A stretch of 64,000 bases of DNA from Dehalococcoidia bacterium (GTDB taxonomy: Bacteria > Chloroflexota > Dehalococcoidia > GIF9 > AB-539-J10). Of the stretch, positions 2,232 to 31,738 are shown in pieces; within the stretch, counting starts at the first letter, position 1; each line of letters starts with the position of its first letter. The position numbers and the translations under genes were made by a program. The stretch covers positions 4,319 to 68,318 of the forward strand of contig JACUUR010000001.1 in assembly GCA_014859205.1 (NCBI GenBank), written 5' to 3'. Under the pieces are notes generated by a model. It was not told the DNA's origin. It ran no database searches and saw nothing but the letters and a program-made list of their open reading frames with translations.

Positions 2232-3683
2232 TTACGAATCGATGCCGCATAGTCTCCTGGCGCTGCTCTTCATCCTCTCCATGTCAACCTGCCTGCCTAT
2301 CATGATCTTCTGGGCCATGGGCGATCCCGCACCATGCATCGATTCCGGCAGATAGCAGGCTGCACCTGCACCCACCGTCAGGTTCTCGATCAATCGCAAT
2401 ACACGGACGCGGCTCTCTACCTCAGTGCCGTCAACACCCTTTAGGTACTTGGCCATGTGCCTTCCTATCTCGGGATGCTTAAGGTCCTTCTCGGACGGCA
2501 TGGTCACAATTATGCCTCCGGCGATGTCCTGGGCCAGCCTGGCAATATCATAGGGAAACCTGGTCACGTTCAGCTTGGATACATTTGCCCTCAGAGTGTC
2601 CACGGAGTATGTTCCGGAAGCTTCTTTATGGCCCTCATAAGCACAAGCCAGACTGCAGGACATCATGGTCTCGTTAAGATGGATCATATCAACGATCTTG
2701 TCCTTGATGTGGGAAGCCCCGGCCGTGCCCTGATACTCGGCTATCAACTGACTGGCTCCGATCAACACATCACCAATGCCGGACTTGCAGGCATAGCTCT
2801 GGCGATGATAGGCGGCGAACTTCTCCACCAGGTCGCCGGCAAACTCATATTCTCTGTACATGAACACCCGTTCCCAGGGAACGAATACGTCGTCGAAGAC
2901 GACCATACATTCTTGTCCCCCGTAAAGGACATTCCCCACATCCATGTGAGGGCTTTCTATCTTCCTGGTGTCACAGGGCTGCCTTCCATAGATGTATATG
3001 ATTCCCTGTGTGTCAGCGGGAAGGGCAAAGGAAATGGCATAGTCCTTGTCTTCCTCGCGCATAGCCCTGGTGGGCATGCAGATGATCTCGTGGGAGTTCA
3101 CTGCCCCGGTCTGGTGCATCTTGCAGCCCCGTACTACGATCCCGTCCGGTTTCTCCTCCACCATGTGCAGGTACTGATCAGGATCGGCCTGCTGGGCGGG
3201 ATGCAGGCCTCGATCGCCCTTGGCATCGGTCATGGCGCCATCGCAGACGAGGTCTTCGTCCTGGACGTACCTCAAGTATGCCAGAAAACGCCGGTTGTAC
3301 TGGCTGCCGTACTTGCGATCGAGATCATGGGTCAATATAGACAGGGCGTTCAGGGCATCCATCCCCACGCAACGTTGAAAGCAAGAGCCGGTATGCGCGC
3401 CCAGCAGCCTGCCCATCTTTGACTTGTTGACAAGGTCGCCCGTGCTCTGATGAATATGGCAGAACCGGTTTATCCTCTGGCCAGTCAGATGAGAGGTGGC
3501 CGTCATCACGGCCTGGTATTGAGGAAACCTCGCTTCGTCCGCCAGGTCATAAGTGGCGGCAACGCAGTTCATCGCAGGCCTGATAATGGGGTGCTCCACA
3601 TGATCGGCAATCCGCTCTCCGAACATGTAGAGTTCGAAGCGCATCCTCCTCATGCTGTCGATGTATTCCCTGGCAGTCTTCAT
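2232..3683 (-). CDS. 4-hydroxybutyryl-CoA dehydratase / vinylacetyl-CoA isomerase family protein (AbfD/HpaB superfamily)
   Basis: 483 aa with the HpaB/AbfD fold signature. A C-x3-C pair (CFQRC) is consistent with the AbfD [4Fe-4S] ligands. Sits between purB and purC. Confidence 0.6.
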   Translation of the reverse strand: MKTAREYIDSMRRMRFELYMFGERIADHVEHPIIRPAMNCVAATYDLADEARFPQYQAVMTATSHLTGQRINRFCHIHQSTGDLVNKSKMGRLLGAHTGSCFQRCVGMDALNALSILTHDLDRKYGSQYNRRFLAYLRYVQDEDLVCDGAMTDAKGDRGLHPAQQADPDQYLHMVEEKPDGIVVRGCKMHQTGAVNSHEIICMPTRAMREEDKDYAISFALPADTQGIIYIYGRQPCDTRKIESPHMDVGNVLYGGQECMVVFDDVFVPWERVFMYREYEFAGDLVEKFAAYHRQSYACKSGIGDVLIGASQLIAEYQGTAGASHIKDKIVDMIHLNETMMSCSLACAYEGHKEASGTYSVDTLRANVSKLNVTRFPYDIARLAQDIAGGIIVTMPSEKDLKHPEIGRHMAKYLKGVDGTEVESRVRVLRLIENLTVGAGAACYLPESMHGAGSPMAQKIMIGRQVDMERMKSSARRLCGIDS

Positions 3684-9519: not shown

Positions 9520-10248
9520 ATGAATGCTTTGCAGCGAGACATCGACCATGCCGTCGACATCCTAAAGCAGGGTGGCGTGGTGGCCTTCCCTACCGATACC
9601 GTCTACGGCCTGGGAGCCGACGCCTTCAACTCAGAGGCGGTGGCCAGGACCTATGAGATCAAGGGCCGGCCCAAGGATAGGCCGCTGCCCCTGCTGATCG
9701 CTGATGTGGAGAGATCGACCGCTCTGGTCAAGCCGATACCGGGCATCGCCCGGTTCTTAGCCAGGCGGTTCTGGCCGGGTGGCCTGACTCTGGTGCTGTC
9801 GAAGGCAGATCGTATGCCTGCTCATCTGTCAGCAGGGGAGGGCATAGCGATACGAGTTCCTGACCACCCGGTCTGCCGGGCTCTCCTTCAGGGCCTGAGC
9901 GGCCCCATGATCGGAACCAGCGCCAATCTAAGTGGCAGACCCTCAGCGCTGACCGCCGATGAAGTCTCACTGCAGTTGGGGGAAAGAGTCGACTCCATCG
10001 TCAACGGAGGCGAATGCCCCGGCGGCAGAGAGTCCACAGTCGTGGACGTCAGGGGCCAGACGCCCGTCGTATTGCGCGAGGGCATCATACCCTCATACGA
10101 GATTGACAAGGTATGTCAGGAATACCTGAGGCTGCACGAAGGCCGCGAGGATGCAGGGGCTCCAGGCACGCCCGGCGGCCCTGACACTCGGGGGTTGAGC
10201 TGCCTGTACTCCAACCAGAGCACTTCTGCGGGAGGATCAGGGTTATGA
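9520..10248 (+). CDS. tsaC: L-threonylcarbamoyladenylate synthase (Sua5/YwlC/YrdC family)
   Basis: YrdC-like domain (VVAFPTDTVYGLGADAFN) with Sua5-like C-terminal extension. Confidence 0.85.
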   Translation: MNALQRDIDHAVDILKQGGVVAFPTDTVYGLGADAFNSEAVARTYEIKGRPKDRPLPLLIADVERSTALVKPIPGIARFLARRFWPGGLTLVLSKADRMPAHLSAGEGIAIRVPDHPVCRALLQGLSGPMIGTSANLSGRPSALTADEVSLQLGERVDSIVNGGECPGGRESTVVDVRGQTPVVLREGIIPSYEIDKVCQEYLRLHEGREDAGAPGTPGGPDTRGLSCLYSNQSTSAGGSGL

Positions 10249-23670: not shown

Positions 23671-25434
23671 TCAGGAGTTGCTCGGCCACCATCGGTCTTG
23701 ACTCCAAGTCAGAACTACCACAATCGGATCAACAAAGCCCACCCTTACCAGCGTACGAAGAGGCTCGCACCTAGAGATGAAGTCGGCTATGGGAGGACTG
23801 ACGCTGTAGTAGACCGACACGAAACTCGCCCCAAGGCTATTGGGCAGCAGCACCGCGTCCCTGAAGTCCCTCAGGACGTCTATCTCATCGGCAGCATCGG
23901 TACCGTAGACCGCGGTCGAGATGAAACACCCACACCCATTCGGCACACCCGGCGAGGACCCGTAGCCGCCAAACGGTGTCCCGCCCAGGTCGGCCAGGGA
24001 CGGCGTGGTGTCGCTCGTGATCTTCGCCCAGATATACTTGTCGGAGGTATTCACCCAGGTATCCGAACACTGTTTCCACTCTGTGCCATCCCACCACAGC
24101 AGCCTGAAGAATGTCTGGTATAACTGGCTGACGTTTTCCACTTCAGCGTCCGTATAGTGAAGCCTAATCTCAACCTCGGCAACGTCCTGGGTGTCGGCAA
24201 CGCGAACATCGATATACTTGCCCAGTGTGATGAACCGCGAAGGCGCGGCATCCTCAGGATTCTCGGCGTACTTGGCGACGGTCACCGTGGCACCGATTAT
24301 GTCAACCTCAGTCTCAGCCTCCGTATTCAGGGTCCTGGCAGTCGTCGCAGCCGGCGTTCGCATCGTCACCCACACCTCGGTGTCGGCCTGGTCCAAAGCA
24401 TTGACGACACCATCAGCGGTCAACGTCGCTGTCACTACATCGGCCACCACCCAGGGCCGGAAATCCACATTATTGCTGACGGCATTACCCCTGCCGGTGA
24501 CATTCTCTGTAGGGTGAAATGGTCCGGTACCATGCCCCCACCAGTTATGGAGGGCGTCCACCCTCTGGCCTCCATCATTGAAGACGCCCAGCGCAGCGTT
24601 GCCAACGATGTTATTGAAGTGGGCCTCCACGACCGAGCTATCACAGACGTAGATGCCTATGTCATTGTTGTCAGTGATGGTGCACCCTTTCACCTTTGCG
24701 ACCGCCGGTCCCTGCCAATCATCGCCCGGTATCCCCACCACGATTCCCACACCACTGTCCATGATGCCGAAGCCGCCGTTGCCTGTCATTCTTGTGATAG
24801 TACAGCCATCAAGATCGGCCTCCGCATCCCAGATAATAATGCCCGCCATCGAGTTCCTGACCGTCACGTCTGCCAGATTCACCGAGGGCTCGCGTGCGTG
24901 TCCTATGATAGCCACTCCCACACCTAGTTCTGCCCCGAAGGTATTCTCCACCCTCACATTGGCAATTCTGCCTGTGCTGCCAACATAGGCGATGCCCACA
25001 GCCACTTCTCGGTACACGTCCAGTTCGCTGAGTGCAGCTCCGTCAAAGTCAATGCCTCGGATGATGATGTTGTGCGAGTCCTTGACAGCGGCCATGCTCC
25101 ATGCATCTCCTATCGGCCCGCGATCTATCGCGAACCAATCGCCTGCAACGACGGTTGCTCCTGCATCGCCAATTATGCTTATGTTGGTCTTGTTAACCAT
25201 CGAGAAGGCCCCGTAGTTGCCTGCTGCCACCCTGACCATATCGCCATCACGGGCAGCCTCAACAGCATCCTGGATATCGGCAAAGGCGCTGGTCCAACTA
25301 AGGCCCGTCTCATCCCCAGCGCCACCCTCGACGACATACCATGTCGTCGAGCTGGCGGCCGCCGGCAGAGCCGGGACCACTGTCAGGCTCAACACCAGTG
25401 CCAGGACAAATAGGCTAGTGAGTATCTTCTTCAC
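23671..25434 (-). CDS. secreted right-handed parallel beta-helix protein (NosD / pectate-lyase-like repeats) with a conserved C-terminal 'CFI-AAYG' domain
   Basis: GTG start behind AAGGAGAGAGA. Signal peptide MKKILTSLFVLALVLSLTVVPALPAAAS. Beta-helix repeat periodicity. The last ~85 aa are shared with 25826..28105. Confidence 0.8.
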   Translation of the reverse strand: MKKILTSLFVLALVLSLTVVPALPAAASSTTWYVVEGGAGDETGLSWTSAFADIQDAVEAARDGDMVRVAAGNYGAFSMVNKTNISIIGDAGATVVAGDWFAIDRGPIGDAWSMAAVKDSHNIIIRGIDFDGAALSELDVYREVAVGIAYVGSTGRIANVRVENTFGAELGVGVAIIGHAREPSVNLADVTVRNSMAGIIIWDAEADLDGCTITRMTGNGGFGIMDSGVGIVVGIPGDDWQGPAVAKVKGCTITDNNDIGIYVCDSSVVEAHFNNIVGNAALGVFNDGGQRVDALHNWWGHGTGPFHPTENVTGRGNAVSNNVDFRPWVVADVVTATLTADGVVNALDQADTEVWVTMRTPAATTARTLNTEAETEVDIIGATVTVAKYAENPEDAAPSRFITLGKYIDVRVADTQDVAEVEIRLHYTDAEVENVSQLYQTFFRLLWWDGTEWKQCSDTWVNTSDKYIWAKITSDTTPSLADLGGTPFGGYGSSPGVPNGCGCFISTAVYGTDAADEIDVLRDFRDAVLLPNSLGASFVSVYYSVSPPIADFISRCEPLRTLVRVGFVDPIVVVLTWSQDRWWPSNS

Positions 25435-25548
25435 GTCTCTCTCCTTTTGCTTTATCTCTATTGCCTTGTCGCCCCTTCGACCCGGGGCATGGCGGCCTCT
25501 CTATCGCAAATCTCTGACTTCCATCATAGGCATCAACCCGCTGAGAAA

Positions 25549-25575
25549 CGAAAAACCGGCCCGCTGAAGGCCGAT
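25549..25575 (-). promoter_or_regulatory. terminator-like hairpin plus U-tract inside the leader of beta-helix gene 1 (CGGCC-N7-GGCCG then GUUUUUCGUUUCUC), about 120 nt upstream of the start codon
   Basis: Read on the minus strand. An analogous element sits at the equivalent position in the gene 2 leader. Confidence 0.4.
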
Positions 25576-25754
25576 CTGGACATGGACCTCTGAACAGACA
25601 GAGTTCCGCGGAAGCGCGGCTTCCTGTAACTGCACCTTACCTCCCTTCTCCGCGATTGCCTCATTACCACTCCTGGACTGCCGCTCAACGTATGGCGTGA
25701 TCAACAGGCGGGTTTGGCCAGAATTGCGACCACTCGCCAATGAACTAAGAATAT

Positions 25755-25786
25755 GTTAACAGGTAAGTGTTAAGATATTATTAAGG
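25755..25786 (-). promoter_or_regulatory. direct repeats GTTAACA / GTTAAGA / ATTAAGG about 330 nt upstream of beta-helix gene 1
   Basis: AT-rich heptamer repeats in a roughly 60% GC background. Paralogous repeats (GTTAAGA x2) lie upstream of gene 2 at the same distance. Confidence 0.4.
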
Positions 25787-25825
25787 TCTGCGGACGACAA
25801 TGAAGCAGGCGGAGTGCGACCCCGC

Positions 25826-28105
25826 CTAATAGCCCCACTCTGACCAAGAGTGCCGGCTCCAGTTCAAGACAGAGACAATCGGCTCAACAAGACCGGCGCG
25901 CACCACTGCCCTGAGCGGCTCATTGCGGGAGATCAAAAGGGCAACGGGACGACTGACCCTATAGTAGAGGGACACAAACCCTGCACCCAGGCTGTTGGAT
26001 AGTAGAACCTGATCCCTGAACTCCCTCAGAATATCTATCTGATCGGCGGTATCCGTACCGTAGGCTGCGCTGGCGATGAAGCACATCATGCTCCTGAACC
26101 TGGCAGTTATGGAGTAGTCGCCGTCCATGGTGATGGTGGTCACAGGGGCTCTGACATTGGCAATGGTGTCCACGTCACCCGTCCACCTGTCAAACTCGTA
26201 GCCATCATCTGGAGTCGCCTCCAGGCCGACCTCAGTGCCGGGCGCATAGACGAAAGCCCTCTCGCCCGGACTAGTTACCACGCCTCGAGCGTCGCTCGAG
26301 ACCTTCAATGTGCGGAGAGGAGCACCCAGCCAGGGCTGGAAAACCACATCGTTGCTGACGCCATTACCAGTTGCCCCGGGATTGGCTGATGCATGGTACG
26401 GCCCGCTGGCATCACCCCACCAGTTGTCCGTGGCGTCACCAGTAACAGCGCTATCTCTTACTAGCAGCCCGTATTCGCCGTTCTCCACGATGTCGTTGAA
26501 GTTGATCAGCACGGCACTGCCGGCGCCAATGGCTGCCAGATGGATTCCATACTCGTTGTTCTGGCGTATTCTGTTGTACACAATGGTTACAGTGCTGTTG
26601 TCCCCAAGTCCATCGGGACAGGTATCCACGCCGGCAGTAGCACCGGCAAGGATGTTCTCCCTGACGGTGACCTGGCTGCCATCCTCAAGGCAGAGCCTCA
26701 AGGCATAATCACGACCATCGGCCTGGACGGTGAACCCGACGCCATCCCCACCAAGGAAGACTATCTCATCGGTCAAATCCACGCTTACAGAGCCGATGAT
26801 GGCCGTCGCCTCAGCCCCGTTCGCAGACCTGATGGTCAGCGACTTACCGATACCCAAGTCCTCCCTGTATTCGCCCTCCGTCACTACGATTGTATCACCG
26901 GAGGTCGCCAGATCAACGGCGTACTGAATAGAGCCGGTGGGGTCCACTCCCCAGGTCATCGGCTCAGTGCCAGTCTCAGCCCCCAGCCATGGCGAGTAGA
27001 AAACCCTTGCCGAGACGCGATCTCGATTACCGGGTCCCAATCCACCGGGGCCGTCCACATGACCCCACCAGTTACCGATGGCATCCAGATCCAAGGGGCC
27101 ATCGTTACGCACACCCCGCGAGGAATTGCCGAATATTCTATTGAAGCTGACTCTAAGGTCGATCTGCCTATCGTCGGGGTACTCCGGAAGAGGAGGAAAC
27201 ACATATATGCCGTAGAGATTCCCGGTGAAGGTGTTCCCCTCCACGGTCACATTAGTAGAAGGAAACCGGTCGAGACGATGCGCGAAGCTCAGGCCCGCGC
27301 CTTTGACATAACCACTCACTATGTTGTTCCTGACCACGGTATCCAGGAACTGCCCCCTGATGCCTTCTCCTTCGGTGATTACGCTATCCGTGGTCTGGCA
27401 CAGCACCTGGTTGCCTTCCACAAGCGAATACTGGAGATACCCGATTATGCCATACCTCACGTTTACGATCAGGTTGTTCCTGAAGAGCGCTATGGTGGGA
27501 TCAACGGGCCGTAAGGCGCCCGCGTTGATGCCGTACCTGGCGTTTTCAACATAGCAGTACTCGATGGTAGCCTCCTTCGTGAAGGTGAGGCTGAGCCCGA
27601 ACTGTTCGGAGTTCAGGGCGCGTACGTTCCTGACAACGATCTCAGCCGCCAGCGGTTTTCGATCAGGGTCAGGCGTGGACATAGCATGGAAGGTGTTCTG
27701 GATGGTCAACCCGTCGATCACCACCTCACGGTCGGTATCGTTGATTATGCTTATGCCGATCACTTCACGATAGTCTGCGTCAATGATCGTCTCGGGGCCG
27801 GTACGGTCCCGTGCGTCAACTCCGGCCTGGGCACCCTTCAAGGTCAACGATTTGTCGATGACGACATTTTCTTTGTACAGGCCCGCCGCCACCACGACTG
27901 TATCTCTTTCGCCGGCATGATCAATGGCGTACTGTATGGTAGCGAACGCGTCTCCGCCTGGCCCGGTGCCCTTGCCCTGATCATCCTCGCCCAACGAGCC
28001 ATCGACATACCACGTGGAATTGCTGGCCGCCACCGGCACCCCCGGCACCAGGATCGGGTCGCCGACCAGCACGATTAGCAACAGGATACCGAATATCTTC
28101 TTCAT
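25826..28105 (-). CDS. secreted parallel beta-helix protein (two beta-helix regions) with an InlB-B-repeat-like module and the conserved C-terminal 'CFI-AAYG' domain; start taken at ATG 28105 (MKKIFGILLL...) rather than the track start 28180
   Basis: AAGGAGAGAG SD is 3 nt before ATG 28105, followed by a signal peptide. C-terminal 85 aa are about 65% identical to 23671..23925. Confidence 0.8.
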   Translation of the reverse strand: MKKIFGILLLIVLVGDPILVPGVPVAASNSTWYVDGSLGEDDQGKGTGPGGDAFATIQYAIDHAGERDTVVVAAGLYKENVVIDKSLTLKGAQAGVDARDRTGPETIIDADYREVIGISIINDTDREVVIDGLTIQNTFHAMSTPDPDRKPLAAEIVVRNVRALNSEQFGLSLTFTKEATIEYCYVENARYGINAGALRPVDPTIALFRNNLIVNVRYGIIGYLQYSLVEGNQVLCQTTDSVITEGEGIRGQFLDTVVRNNIVSGYVKGAGLSFAHRLDRFPSTNVTVEGNTFTGNLYGIYVFPPLPEYPDDRQIDLRVSFNRIFGNSSRGVRNDGPLDLDAIGNWWGHVDGPGGLGPGNRDRVSARVFYSPWLGAETGTEPMTWGVDPTGSIQYAVDLATSGDTIVVTEGEYREDLGIGKSLTIRSANGAEATAIIGSVSVDLTDEIVFLGGDGVGFTVQADGRDYALRLCLEDGSQVTVRENILAGATAGVDTCPDGLGDNSTVTIVYNRIRQNNEYGIHLAAIGAGSAVLINFNDIVENGEYGLLVRDSAVTGDATDNWWGDASGPYHASANPGATGNGVSNDVVFQPWLGAPLRTLKVSSDARGVVTSPGERAFVYAPGTEVGLEATPDDGYEFDRWTGDVDTIANVRAPVTTITMDGDYSITARFRSMMCFIASAAYGTDTADQIDILREFRDQVLLSNSLGAGFVSLYYRVSRPVALLISRNEPLRAVVRAGLVEPIVSVLNWSRHSWSEWGY

Positions 28106-28210
28106 CTCTCTCCTTATAGACGCTCCTTCTAATCGCTCTTCGTCACTAGGCCGGAGACATGGTGACCTTTCCTCACACAACCCGCACTCTCTCAGACATC
28201 AAGCCGCCGA

Positions 28211-28240: not shown

Positions 28241-28431
28241 CTCATCGTGAACAGCTCCCGCGCGAGTAGCCCTGTGAAGCGGCCACCCTGCAACCCCTGT
28301 GATAGGTCTTCCTTGCAATTCGCTCGCATTGGCTCCCCGATTACCAGTGGGCACGTGGCATAGGCAAAAGCCGATATCTCCCAGGACATCCATAAGTCAA
28401 CAGGGAACAACAAATATGGTAGCATCCAACT

Positions 28432-28623: not shown

Positions 28624-28664
28624 TTGTTTTTCACCATATTTAGTGGTACAATGGCATCATGCCA
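28624..28664 (+). promoter_or_regulatory. nrdR promoter TTGTTT-N17-TACAAT with a candidate NrdR box TCACCATATTTAGTGG (28631-28646) in the spacer and a perfect inverted repeat TGGCATcATGCCA (28652-28664) at the start site
   Basis: The NrdR box matches 12 of 16 positions of the published consensus acaCwAtATaTwGtgt. The palindromes are seen directly in the sequence. Confidence 0.55.
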
Positions 28665-28683
28665 CAATTCCTGGGAGGAATCG

Positions 28684-29208
28684 GTGAATTGCCCTAATTG
28701 CGGCAGGCAGGATTCAGGTGTGGTGGATTCGCGAAGCCTGGGCGACGTCGTGAGACGACGAAGGAAATGCCTTGCCTGCGGCGCTCGCTTCACTACTCAT
28801 GAACGGGTACATGTGCACGATCTATTCGTTATCAAGAAGGATGGGCGGCGTGAGGACTTCAGCCGGGAGAAGCTCTCCCTTGGGATTCGCAGGGCTTGTG
28901 AGAAGCGTCCGCTTCCCACGGGCGCCATAGACAAGCTTGTGGAGAGCATCGAGGCTGAGCTATATAAGATGGGTAGGGGCGAGGTCTCCAGTGCCCACAT
29001 AGGCGATCTGGTCATGGAAGGATTGCGGAAGCTGGACCACATTGCTTACATACGGTTTGCCAGCGTCTATCGCACGTTTGCTGATATCGGCGATCTGAAA
29101 CAAGAGGTGGACAGCCTGGCCGAACGGGGAGAACTGACACCGACGAATCAACTCCCCCTGCCCTCCTGTGAGACGGTGAGTGCTCTAGCTGGTCGTAAGA
29201 GAAGGTAG
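28684..29208 (+). CDS. nrdR: transcriptional repressor NrdR (zinc ribbon + ATP-cone); start at GTG 28684 giving MNCPNCG..., whereas the track ORF starts at a TTG inside the promoter
   Basis: CPxCG...CxxCG zinc ribbon at the N-terminus, RRR motif, ATP-cone. GGGAGGAA SD is 5 nt upstream of the GTG. Confidence 0.85.
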   Translation: MNCPNCGRQDSGVVDSRSLGDVVRRRRKCLACGARFTTHERVHVHDLFVIKKDGRREDFSREKLSLGIRRACEKRPLPTGAIDKLVESIEAELYKMGRGEVSSAHIGDLVMEGLRKLDHIAYIRFASVYRTFADIGDLKQEVDSLAERGELTPTNQLPLPSCETVSALAGRKRR

Positions 29209-29209
29209 A

Positions 29210-31738
29210 ATGCCCAGGACGCGGCGGAAGGAGACCCGGAAGACTATCGGCCAAGATGAAGTGGCTCGTGCTGTCTTCGCTGCTGCCGAGTCCATGGGTA
29301 TAAGCGACAGGAAACTGCTGGACAGGTTTGCGGAACAGGTGAGCGAACGGCTACAGATAGCGCAGCCTCTGCCGGGTATGGAAGGACTGGTGCCCCGGCG
29401 GATCGGACAGCACATGTCCCCCTCCCGGATACGGGAGATGGTCAAGGAGATGCTAACTGTGGATGAGTTTTCTCCTCAGTCCAGAAGCCAGGTCATCTCC
29501 GGCATCGAGCTTAGTGAGAATGCCTTGAGGGTTCTGGCGAGGAGATATCTGGGCAAAGACGGCGAGGGGACGCCTACTGAAACTCCACAGGAGCTATTTC
29601 GCCGCGTGGCCAGGCATATCGCCTCAGCTGAGTCTATCTACGATCCGGATGCCGATGTCTCGCTCCATGAAGAGGACTTCTATCGATTGATGGAGAGACT
29701 GGAGTTTCTGCCCAATTCGCCGACACTGATGAACGCCGGTCGCGAACTCGGACAGTTATCGGCCTGCTTCGTACTGCCCATCGAGGATTCTATGGAGTCC
29801 ATCTTTGACGCGGTGAAGTATACCGCCCTGATTCACAAAAGCGGGGGAGGCACCGGCTTCTCATTCTCCCGGCTCAGGCCCGAGAAGGACAGAGTGGGGT
29901 CCACAGGTGGCATTGCCAGCGGTCCCGTCTCTTTCATGCGGGCGTTTGATGCCACAACTGACGTCATTAAGCAAGGCGGGATGCGACGGGGAGCCAATAT
30001 GGCAATACTCAGTGTTGACCATCCCGACATTCTGAGATTCATTGAGGCCAAGGAGGACCCCGAAGCCCTTACGAATTTCAACCTGTCCATAGCTATCACC
30101 GACGAGTTCATGAAAGCAGTGGAAGAAGGCGCCGACTACAGCCTGACCAACCCCAGAACTCGAGAAGTGGTAGATAAGCTTAACGCCAAGGAGGTATTCG
30201 ACAAGATAGTGGACATGGCCTGGCGCACGGGCGACCCGGGCATCGTCTTCATCGACGAGATCAACAGACATAACCCCACACCTCAACTGGGCAAGATAGA
30301 GAGCACCAACCCCTGTGGCGAACAGCCGCTGCTCCCCTTTGAGTCCTGTAATCTCGGGTCTGTGAATCTGGCCAGGATGGTAGCCGCTAGGAACGGTCAG
30401 CCACAGGTTGATTATGACAAGCTGGCCCGAACCGTCAGGCTGGCGGTCCGCTTCCTCGACGACGTTATCGAGGTGAACCGATTTCCGCTGGCGGAGATCG
30501 AGGAGATGACGAAGACCACCAGGAAGGTAGGATTGGGGGTGATGGGTTTTGCCGATATGCTGATTCAGCTCGGCATACCCTATGACAGTGAACAGGGACT
30601 TGTCGCCGCCGAAGACATAGCCCGTTTCATATCCCAGGAGGCGGACAAAGCTTCGATGGAGCTGGGTCAAGAGAGGGGCGTTTTTCCTGCCTTTGAAAGC
30701 AGCATATACGACAGGCCCGACGGTCCCCGTTTCCGAAACGCTTCCCGAACCACCATTGCGCCTACGGGCAGCCTGAGCATAATCGCCAACTGCTCCAGCG
30801 GCATTGAACCGCTGTTCGCCCTGAGCTATGTGCGTCATATTCTAGAAGGCGAGGAGTTTGTCGAGGTTAACCCTTACTTCGAGGAGGCGGCCAAGCAGGG
30901 AGGGTTCTACTCTCCTGATCTGATGAAGCAGCTAGCCGAAGGAAAGAGGTTAAGAGACCTGGAAGGCGTTCCCGAACAGACCAAGAAGGTCTTTGTCACC
31001 GCCCATGACATATCACCCGAGTGGCACGTTAAGATGCAGGCGGCCTTCCAGAGGTTTACCGATAGCGCTGTATCCAAGACGGTCAACTTCCCTCATGAGG
31101 CCAAGCCCGAGGATGTAGCCGAAGTGTACATGCTGGCCTACAGGGAGAGGCTGAAGGGGATAACCATCTACCGTGATAGGAGCCGGGCGAGTCAGGTGCT
31201 CACCGTTGGTGAGAGCGAGAAGAAGGCGGAAGGGCCTGCCCAAGGCAGAATCGAAGGGAAGCTGGCTCCCCGGAGAAGGCCCAAGGTTACCAGGGGCGTA
31301 ACCGAGAGGGTGAACACCGGATGTGGCTACATCTATGTGACGGTGAACTTCGATAGCAGAGGCATATCGGAGGTTTTCTCGGCTCTGGGAAAGGCCGGAG
31401 GGTGCGCAGCAGCTCAGTTGGAGGCAATCAGCCGGCTTACTTCGCTGGCCCTGAGATCGGGAATAGACACGGACTCAATAGTGAAGCATCTGCGCGGAAT
31501 TAGATGCCCTTCTATTGCCTGGGAGCAGGGACATGCCGTCCTGTCCTGTGCCGACGCGATTGCCAGCGTGCTGGAGAAGTACATTAGAGAAAAGGGCGCT
31601 GATAATCCAGGGGGGCCTTCCCCGAATCCCGAGATGGTCAAGAGCTGGGCAGGGCAATGCCCTGATTGTGGCGGACCCCTGATCTATCAGGAGGGGTGCA
31701 ATATTTGCATCGCATGCGGTTTCACCAAATGCGGATAG
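29210..31738 (+). CDS. nrdJ: adenosylcobalamin-dependent (class II) ribonucleotide reductase
   Basis: 842 aa with RNR class II catalytic motifs (NPCGEQPL with active-site Cys, C-terminal Cys pair) and an ATP-cone-like N-terminus. Directly follows nrdR. Confidence 0.9.
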   Translation: MPRTRRKETRKTIGQDEVARAVFAAAESMGISDRKLLDRFAEQVSERLQIAQPLPGMEGLVPRRIGQHMSPSRIREMVKEMLTVDEFSPQSRSQVISGIELSENALRVLARRYLGKDGEGTPTETPQELFRRVARHIASAESIYDPDADVSLHEEDFYRLMERLEFLPNSPTLMNAGRELGQLSACFVLPIEDSMESIFDAVKYTALIHKSGGGTGFSFSRLRPEKDRVGSTGGIASGPVSFMRAFDATTDVIKQGGMRRGANMAILSVDHPDILRFIEAKEDPEALTNFNLSIAITDEFMKAVEEGADYSLTNPRTREVVDKLNAKEVFDKIVDMAWRTGDPGIVFIDEINRHNPTPQLGKIESTNPCGEQPLLPFESCNLGSVNLARMVAARNGQPQVDYDKLARTVRLAVRFLDDVIEVNRFPLAEIEEMTKTTRKVGLGVMGFADMLIQLGIPYDSEQGLVAAEDIARFISQEADKASMELGQERGVFPAFESSIYDRPDGPRFRNASRTTIAPTGSLSIIANCSSGIEPLFALSYVRHILEGEEFVEVNPYFEEAAKQGGFYSPDLMKQLAEGKRLRDLEGVPEQTKKVFVTAHDISPEWHVKMQAAFQRFTDSAVSKTVNFPHEAKPEDVAEVYMLAYRERLKGITIYRDRSRASQVLTVGESEKKAEGPAQGRIEGKLAPRRRPKVTRGVTERVNTGCGYIYVTVNFDSRGISEVFSALGKAGGCAAAQLEAISRLTSLALRSGIDTDSIVKHLRGIRCPSIAWEQGHAVLSCADAIASVLEKYIREKGADNPGGPSPNPEMVKSWAGQCPDCGGPLIYQEGCNICIACGFTKCG

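Follow-up and report, generated by a model that had tools for sequence, protein, structure and literature searches.

A modular leader element with an intrinsic terminator structure precedes about 50 secreted-protein genes of uncultured Dehalococcoidia

In the pyrBI and pyrE attenuators of Escherichia coli the leader carries an intrinsic terminator and a short open reading frame (ORF) that has a ribosome-binding site of its own, the sequence of the encoded peptide being irrelevant; the frame runs through the terminator in pyrBI and ends shortly before it in pyrE (rph). Attenuators of the trp/his/leu type also have a short frame upstream of a terminator in the 5' leader, with a run of regulatory codons and a 2:3 antiterminator. 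Long 5' untranslated regions (UTRs) are known for many S-layer genes, and the leaders of Lactobacillus slpA and Thermus slpA are long conserved sequences before genes for abundant envelope proteins, in which conservation is higher in leader and signal peptide than in the mature protein. We describe here a leader element of about 340 nt that occurs twice in a 64,000-nt stretch of a Dehalococcoidia bacterium (contig JACUUR010000001.1, positions 4,319 to 68,318; hereafter the window), upstream of two adjacent genes for secreted beta-helix proteins. Its conservation marks it as a real control element, preceding about 50 related genes of uncultured Dehalococcoidia and absent from Rfam, and its layout assigns it to a known kind, that of leader attenuators with a regulated promoter. 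In the literature we found nothing on "CFI-box-CTERM", the C-terminal domain of these proteins, or on Dehalococcoidia S-layer leaders, and no description of the element.

Homologous loci were searched by blastn and nhmmer with the leader of the first window gene (leader 1), and then with a profile (E <= 1e-3); 80 of about 260 detected family loci were analysed. The element is present in 54 copies in these 80 loci (50 distinct sequences, nhmmer), always on the gene strand, and a covariance model of its 3' module finds 50 copies. All of 48 distinct copies end at most 35 nt upstream of a gene with the signal peptide VKKIFSILFALVLV (VKKIFSILFALVLVVSLGL...). The CFI box is found in at least 41 of the genes behind them, the mature domains being variable, and the leader unit was never found away from signal-peptide family genes among the related loci. 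The combination of the ~190-nt 5' domain with the terminator has so far been found only in loci attributed to Dehalococcoidia. A scan of genome contigs with the exact terminator consensus returned only unrelated terminators from other phyla, the pattern being too strict or the lineages absent there. In the metagenome-assembled genome (MAG) GCA_046538235.1 from NCBI, the syntenic locus (nrdR divergent from a gene 2-like gene, followed by a gene 1-like gene and then POR genes) has kept both leaders, each with box, Shine-Dalgarno (SD) sequence and ATG, terminator, UGAUG block, GGUCGA hairpin and SD of the gene. An earlier note on this DNA had proposed a functional leader from the window alone, and had named a lack of conservation or covariation at orthologous loci as what would speak against it; both are present there, and the number of copies, the retention of both leaders in the syntenic MAG and the compensatory changes in the terminator (see below) sustain the proposal.

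Across the family (window genes 1 and 2; L001-L080), the signal peptide VKKIFSILFALVLVVSLGLVTAAPVLA and the C-terminal domain are nearly invariant, the passenger domains are highly variable (beta-helix, InlB B-repeat, RCC1, He_PIG), and the genes are often in tandem. In this pattern of constant ends and variable passengers the family resembles diversifying envelope or S-layer protein families.

The two window leaders are colinear, with their parts at matched distances from the start codon, as had been claimed. Their local alignment score is 32, against 19.0 +/- 2.5 in 500 dinucleotide shuffles (maximum 31), and their global alignment with free end gaps scores 72, the best of the shuffles reaching 16. 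The repeat, the hairpin and the (G/C)TTGATG(C/T)CT word were verified by coordinates, and the SD sequence is indeed identical in both leaders (AAGGAGAGAG). When both strands of the window are searched with a hidden Markov model of the element, leaders 1 and 2 are the only copies returned. When TTAACA-N5-TTAACA is searched with at most two mismatches in the 64-kb window, four matches are obtained for 0.79 expected; they correspond to two sites read on both strands, which fall in the two leaders, with none elsewhere. The features, in which uORF1 stands for the first upstream ORF, are the following:

25434-23671, minus strand: gene 1, GTG start, 587 aa, secreted beta-helix protein with a CFI-box-CTERM domain
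25435-25825, minus strand: leader 1 region
25786-25768, minus strand: leader 1 promoter box CCTTAATAATATCTTAACA, direct repeat CCTTAATA-ATAT-CTTAACA (TTAAYA-N5-TTAACA, 11-bp period)
25760-25754, minus strand: leader 1, third GTTAACA copy
25755-25750, minus strand: leader 1, -10-like hexamer CATATT, 12 nt past the second repeat
25670-25674, minus strand: leader 1, SD-like AGGAG of uORF1
25664-25533, minus strand: leader 1 uORF1, ATG, 43 codons, TGA; crosses the terminator hairpin, its stop overlapping the next ATG (UGAUG)
25577-25543, minus strand: leader 1 predicted intrinsic terminator, stem-loop AGAUCGGCC-UUCAG-CGGGCCGGUUU followed by a U-rich tail
around 25540-25528, minus strand: leader 1 "TTGATG box" GGGTTGATGCCT
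25533-25501, minus strand: leader 1, 10-codon frame MPMMEVRDLR*, whose AUG is that of the "TTGATG box"; ends in the conserved CGAUAG
25488-25471, minus strand: leader 1 hairpin Y, GCCCC-GGGUCGAA-GGGGC, whose GGUCGA loop is conserved
25446-25436, minus strand: SD AAGGAGAGAGA of gene 1 (GTG start at 25434)
28105-25826, minus strand: gene 2, ATG start, 759 aa, secreted beta-helix/InlB-B-repeat protein with a CFI-box-CTERM domain
28106-~28450, minus strand: leader 2 region
28449-28431, minus strand: leader 2 promoter box TCTTAACAGAATCTTAACA, TCTTAACA-GAAT-CTTAACA
28418-28413, minus strand: leader 2, -10-like CATATT, 12 nt past the box
28338-28333, minus strand: leader 2, SD-like GGGGAG of uORF1
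28329-28192, minus strand: leader 2 uORF1, ATG at 28329, 45 codons, TGA at 28194-28192; crosses the terminator
28241-28209, minus strand: leader 2 predicted intrinsic terminator, GACCGGUCCCC-CAG-GGGGCCGGUU followed by a U/G-rich tail
around 28203-28194, minus strand: leader 2 "TTGATG box" CTTGATGTCT
28199-28173, minus strand: leader 2, 8-codon frame MSERVRVV*, whose AUG is that of the "TTGATG box"
28115-28106, minus strand: SD AAGGAGAGAG of gene 2 (ATG start at 28105)
25796-25828, minus strand: terminator-like hairpin GGCGGGGTCGCACTCCGCC of gene 2 itself, overlapping the gene 2 stop codon and separating gene 2 from leader 1

The hairpin of the leader has the family consensus AACCGACCUU-N4-AAGGUCGGUUUUGUGUUUU, a GC-rich core of 8-9 bp with a loop of 3-7 nt and a U-tract; the two window hairpins have 10 pairs each, of which 5 and 7 are GC pairs, and T-rich tails. 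Across 43 aligned leaders the helix is 94.6% paired, with 8 of its 13 pairs changed on both sides, a level that none of 500 shuffles reaches, and pairing falls to 29-51% when the partners are slid. RNAalifold gives compensatory changes in 6 of 8 pairs, and the core has a mean pairing probability of about 0.85-0.9 when the 5' part of the leader is folded through the terminator. By these structural models the hairpin is a well-formed intrinsic terminator structure, and we infer that it would terminate transcription. A generic terminator or a repetitive extragenic palindromic (REP) element was discarded as an explanation, the hairpin motif occurring only inside leaders. Nor is the hairpin needed as the terminator of an upstream gene in either leader, as had been argued for gene 2, because leader 2 faces the divergent nrdR gene and gene 2 has its own hairpin ahead of leader 1; this last hairpin, at the gene 2 stop codon, also makes the two paralogs probably separate transcription units.

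In the family alignment the element is modular, with a promoter, a 5' domain of ~190 nt, the terminator and a downstream module of ~120 nt. Two interchangeable promoter modules occupy the same position, to within about 10 nt for their -10 hexamers. The box module, ACCTTAACAAAATCTTAACA-N12-(C/T)ATATT, has no -35 element and is found in about 19 long leaders, including both window leaders; the sigma-70-type module, an UP-like A-tract followed by CGCTTGACGGTGCAGAGAATGTGATATAAT (TTGACG-N15-TATAAT), is found in about 22. In both window leaders and in related loci, direct hexamer repeats with an 11-bp period stand in the place of the -35 element, at a fixed distance from the -10, and in the window leaders no hexamer with at least 4 of 6 matches to TTGACA was found 16-18 nt upstream of CATATT. 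The TTAACA box is also present in about 25 short leaders, which lack a terminator; a sigma-70-type promoter lies upstream of the box there, and the distance from box to start codon is 84 nt in many loci and 147 nt in others. The TTAACA box is likely an activator site, and transcription would start about 7 nt downstream of CATATT. A start after CATATT or TATAAT is deduced from the fact that the same leader follows either promoter type and that the box promoter directly precedes the short-leader genes.

Boxes of the OmpR/PhoB family are similarly built of hexamer direct repeats with an 11-bp period, at the -35 place and 12 nt from a -10-like hexamer. Examples are the Escherichia coli Pho box, the TT(A/T/C)ACA-N5 repeats of Bacillus subtilis PhoP and, on the other strand, the WalR motif TGTWAH-N5-TGTWAH; we take the TTAACA-N5-TTAACA box to resemble the PhoP and WalR sites. 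The short leaders differ from this scheme, since their box lies downstream of a separate sigma-70-type promoter and could equally be an operator there, and no regulator was found among the ten window ORFs scanned. The "transcription-factor array" of the earlier note is thus retained as a repeat conserved 12 nt from a -10-like hexamer, but it is one of two promoter modules and also precedes short leaders that lack the terminator.

At L093 9591-9993 and L059 259-665 the leader is preceded by the two promoter modules in tandem, the TTAACA box coming first and an inserted sigma-70-like promoter (A-tract/TTGGCA...CATAGT) following ~60-100 nt downstream. In one subgroup a palindrome, GTGAGA-TTC-TCTCAC, lies directly upstream of the TTAACA box (L070 ~2990-3012, L024 ~530-551, L054 and L009). 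It is perfect in L054, has one mismatch in L070, L024 and L009, and takes the degenerate form GTCAGATTCTCTCAT in another subgroup; neither window leader has it. A role as a second operator is possible.

Between the promoter module and the uORF1 start region lie ~65 nt of moderately conserved sequence. The start region itself, UGAGGAGCAAAAGUG, consists of an SD-like run, 5 nt and GUG, and is followed by conserved purine-rich blocks, GGGGAAgAGAGAUUACgGGGAG. GGAG and GUG/AUG are conserved in nearly all of the 43 aligned leaders, with AUG in 5 copies including leader 1. It is here that a TGGTAAT box common to both window leaders had been reported. This match turns out to be coincidental, as the family alignment puts the two words at non-homologous positions, between the SD-like AGGAG and the ATG in leader 1 and upstream of GGGGAG in leader 2; what is conserved at this place is the SD-like GGAG, 4-6 nt, the GUG/AUG and then the purine-rich block.

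Of the sequences with a conserved GUG/AUG start, all but one keep uORF1 open for 26 codons or more. In 42 of 43 leaders its frame runs without a stop codon to 18 nt or less from the terminator core; the other two frames do so in 1 and 11 of the 43. Composition-matched shuffles of the single sequences leave the frame open with probabilities of 0.27-0.81; multiplied, these give 1.7e-4 for 10 diverged representatives and ~5e-3 for the six most diverged, values to be taken as bounds and not as p-values because the sequences are related. The frame stops 8-11 nt before the GC core in the commonest subgroup, and elsewhere within the U-tract or, as in leader 1, at a UGAUG junction; in some copies it is fused with the second mini-frame (uORF2), and in the window both copies span the hairpins. 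Neither uORF1 nor uORF2 was kept as a conserved small-protein gene: in the aligned leaders their peptides are not conserved and no period-3 (third-position) signal was found, and they are retained as possibly translated frames. Since the peptide is not conserved, it would be the act of translating uORF1 that matters, if it is translated, and not the product.

In L095 a gene caller had reported a 42-aa ORF (9775-9903) in a gene 1-like leader, which we read as uORF1 from the identical sequence of L094; similar gene-caller ORFs may point to additional copies in other annotated MAGs. The uORF1 start region also resembles the main-gene start region of the short leaders. In the 147-nt leaders (L029 2098-2245, L062 3400-3546, L051, L064, L066, L071) the start region is tandemly duplicated, as AAGGAGGTGAAGAGCG, 63 nt and GAAGGAGGTGAAGAGTG, with the first start codon inactivated from GTG to GCG. 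These sequences suggest that leaders grow and shrink through duplication and deletion between start regions.

We propose, with a probability of roughly 0.45, that the transcribed 5' leader is a transcription attenuator relieved by ribosomes translating uORF1, in the manner of pyrBI and pyrE. Transcription would begin directly after CATATT, with TTAACA-N5-TTAACA 12 nt upstream in place of a -35 element, the layout of activator-dependent promoters of the OmpR/PhoB type. On the resulting leader of ~300 nt, the ribosome-binding site and the GUG/AUG would open uORF1, the terminator lying ~80-90 nt further on. By default the terminator would fold and stop most transcripts ~120 nt short of the gene; ribosomes on uORF1 that follow closely behind the polymerase would finish just before the stem or cross it, so that the hairpin is blocked and transcription continues. 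Synthesis of an abundant secreted protein would thereby become dependent on translational capacity, as it is with pyrBI and pyrE. In all copies the terminator sits between the start codon and promoter motifs that lie ~200 nt upstream of the hairpin, the position of the promoter being taken from these motifs. That the leader is transcribed from upstream is argued by the presence of the same leader behind either promoter and by the lack of an acceptable sigma-70 promoter after the terminator, no acceptable -10 having been found there in the window leaders or on inspection of the alignment.

The window leaders are similar to pyrBI in having a frame that passes through the terminator, and the commonest subgroup to pyrE/rph in having one that ends shortly before it. 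They differ from both in that neither a UTP-sensitive pause tract nor another defined signal is obvious on inspection, that the coupling is deduced from the layout, that organisms and genes are unrelated and that a module of ~120 nt is added. From the trp/his/leu type they differ in having no run of regulatory codons (a UGG-UGG pair is confined to one subgroup and not conserved), no conserved 2:3 antiterminator and a frame that often crosses the terminator. The slpA leaders, for their part, are described as stabilising 5' stem-loops or autoregulatory sites, without an internal canonical terminator preceded by an ORF.

Several points weigh against the ribosome-relieved attenuator. Translation of uORF1 is suggested by a ribosome-binding site and an open frame in phylogenetically related sequences, and, as seen above, the aligned uORF1 peptides give neither conservation nor a period-3 signal. 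In the commonest subgroup, where the stop lies 11 nt before the GC core, a ribosome would in this model reach only the base of the stem. The purine-rich blocks GGGGAAgAGAGAUUACgGGGAG are not explained by ribosomes and could bind a protein or a ligand. No conserved antiterminator was found, the 5' arm of the terminator being left without a conserved partner once the 3' arm is removed; the best candidate, GGUGGG x CCGACC, has a mean probability of ~0.18 and is by eye absent from other subgroups. None of the ten window ORFs of 190-275 aa that were scanned is an OmpR-type response regulator. A terminator that is closed by default is also unexpected before an envelope protein that is possibly very highly expressed, and the statements on transcription are drawn from motifs throughout.

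The downstream module of ~120 nt is a unit of its own, probably for translation or messenger stability. It begins with GGGAGGGUGAUG, which opens a frame of 9-10 codons ending in a conserved CGAUAG, continues with a hairpin with a UGGUCGA loop, and ends with AUAAGGCAAC, an A-rich tract and AAAAGGAGA, 6-7 nt before the GUG/AUG of the gene. The AUG of the mini-frame is present in most, not all, family members, and its SD spacing is short. The "TTGATG box" was rejected as a -35 element, the family reading GGGAGGG-UGAUG at this place, an SD-like run and the AUG of the 9-10 codon frame. Two further helices, recognisable by eye as well as in folds of single sequences, were considered in the region after the terminator. 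In helix X, GCYU(GUC)/(GAC)ARGC, one pair appears as UA (15), UG (13) and CG (11); helix Y, the GGUCGA-loop hairpin, is seen in most members by per-sequence folding, with stems that differ between subgroups. Neither exceeded the shuffle controls, before or after covariance-model realignment. At L017 3709-3806 the downstream module (GGTGATGCC...GGTCGA hairpin...SD) is all that separates two family genes of the same orientation; box, uORF1 and terminator are missing, an arrangement which indicates that the module can stand alone.

A different account would have a factor or a ligand, possibly that of a new riboswitch class, bind the 5' domain and decide the fate of the terminator, uORF1 being incidental. 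We consider this rather improbable, although several observations speak for it. Near-invariant blocks, the purine blocks among them, precede the terminator; the predicted default formation of this terminator calls for some means of relief; and the sequence of L028 3471-3550 matches the cyclic di-GMP-II riboswitch (c-di-GMP-II, RF01786), a class that often controls surface proteins. This match scores 27.2 bits, below the gathering score of 53.5, with none in the window or in the 19 other leader-bearing loci. In L028 the blocks GGAGCGAUGA, UGGUCAC, AGC and AACCGAC align with conserved positions of the aptamer, whose 3' end would overlap the 5' arm of the terminator. Membership of this family was nevertheless rejected: mapped on the 43 leaders, P1, P2 (kink-turn) and P3 are 58.0% paired, where shuffles give 58.6% and 421 of 500 equal or exceed the leaders; the values for P1 and P3 singly are 46.5% and 57.5%. 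Apart from this match, E-value scans of leader 1 and 20 related loci against Rfam gave only noise, and Rfam 15 at gathering threshold found only a tRNA in the window. Against the account stands also the structure of the 5' domain. No conserved helix other than the terminator was found by RNAalifold on nhmmer and MAFFT alignments, by an all-pairs scan and pair counts, by mapped pair probabilities or by minimum free energy folds, which differ between subgroups. A search for a covariation-supported aptamer recovered only the terminator, with power limited by the high sequence identity, and whole-leader folding energies are unremarkable (z +0.17 and -2.06). The terminator in the leader agrees with the attenuator that the earlier note had envisaged; its alternative wording, "riboswitch-like", is not supported, given that no Rfam family matches the leader element at threshold, that no helix except the terminator has covariation support and that no antiterminator pairing is conserved. 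A wider formulation is that 5' domain and terminator form a new class of sensing leader RNA, either with an aptamer too conserved to covary or as a new ribosome-coupled attenuator, which sets how strongly a large, diversifying family of CFI-box-CTERM envelope proteins is expressed and to which the TTAACA box adds a transcription-factor input. We regard it as doubtful.

The leader might instead be a constitutive long 5' UTR that stabilises the messenger or boosts its translation, the hairpin being a leaky terminator, a pause, a processing site or a 5' protection. It accompanies a single family of secreted proteins that look abundant. Strong sigma-70-type promoters with A-tracts stand before many copies, and the 3' module of the leader, with several purine runs of SD type and an A-rich stretch ahead of the SD, is found alone between co-oriented genes in L017. 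However, a stem followed by UUUUGUGUUUU is a canonical terminator and the best-conserved feature of the element, a stabilising hairpin needs no U-tract, and the short-leader paralogs lack the hairpin, so that expression as such does not need it; on balance this reading is unlikely. Two transcription units are more improbable still. Here the ~185 nt from box to terminator would be a gene for a small RNA (sRNA) or a small protein, and the promoter of the main gene would lie within the ~120 nt that follow the terminator. Taken together, promoter, ribosome-binding site, ORF and terminator do make a complete small gene, with a 42-aa ORF called in L095, and after the terminator GCTTGTCG-N15-17-GATAGA is loosely like the TTGACG...TATAAT promoter of the family. 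Yet the candidate -10 (GATAGA/TAGAGA) is without the invariant final T, the -35 is broken by a 3-nt insertion in leader 1, L001 and L002, the peptide shows no conservation, and nowhere does the unit stand apart from family genes. A trans-acting sRNA was likewise discarded, as no excess complementarity to the translation start regions of the family was detected (mean z 0.0, 33 loci). That the resemblance is a neutral relic of tandem duplication, or due to chance, has next to no probability left: some upstream similarity is expected between adjacent paralogs, but the similarity is significant, ~50 diverged copies precede genes for proteins that share no more than 40-65% identity, the sequence is conserved in blocks and the terminator has compensatory changes, by which this explanation is already refuted.

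Dehalococcoidia are abundant in marine sediments and aquifers and mostly uncultured, and the control of their envelope is almost unknown. The leader marks a large paralogous family of secreted proteins that is conserved in promoter, leader and signal peptide and divergent in the mature domains, and with its candidate regulator box, short ORF and terminator it offers a testable handle on envelope regulation. With ~50 instances and no Rfam match it is a candidate for RNA-family catalogues, and it would be a new riboswitch class if the 5' domain does sense a ligand. It is also a possible natural case of modular leader evolution, with promoters swapped, start regions duplicated and the terminator module present or absent.

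Genes 1 and 2 are adjacent paralogs. Both products combine a signal peptide with right-handed beta-helix repeats and carry a CFI-box-CTERM domain at the C-terminus (NF041770, 85 and 80 bits for the two paralogs of the window). A 784-aa ORF from a TTG at 28180 is an overcall of gene 2, whose true start is the ATG at 28105. A "Dehalococcoidia bacterium" MAG at NCBI encodes a protein with 100% identity to the gene 1 product, which has hundreds of homologues, nearly all from sediment or groundwater metagenomes or from Dehalococcoidia/Chloroflexi MAGs. The divergent nrdR gene that faces leader 2 codes for Zn_ribbon_NrdR and ATP-cone domains. Its ORF is listed at 28624-29208 (plus strand) with a TTG start, and the Zn-ribbon begins only at residue 22; the true start is probably ~20 codons further downstream, which would widen the divergent intergenic region. 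It is followed by an ORF of the size of a ribonucleotide reductase (29210-31738), in the same arrangement as in the syntenic MAG loci. A gene for a prepilin (type IV leader) peptidase (A24_N_bact and Peptidase_A24) is located on the same contig at 58873-59646 (plus strand) and is unrelated to the leaders.

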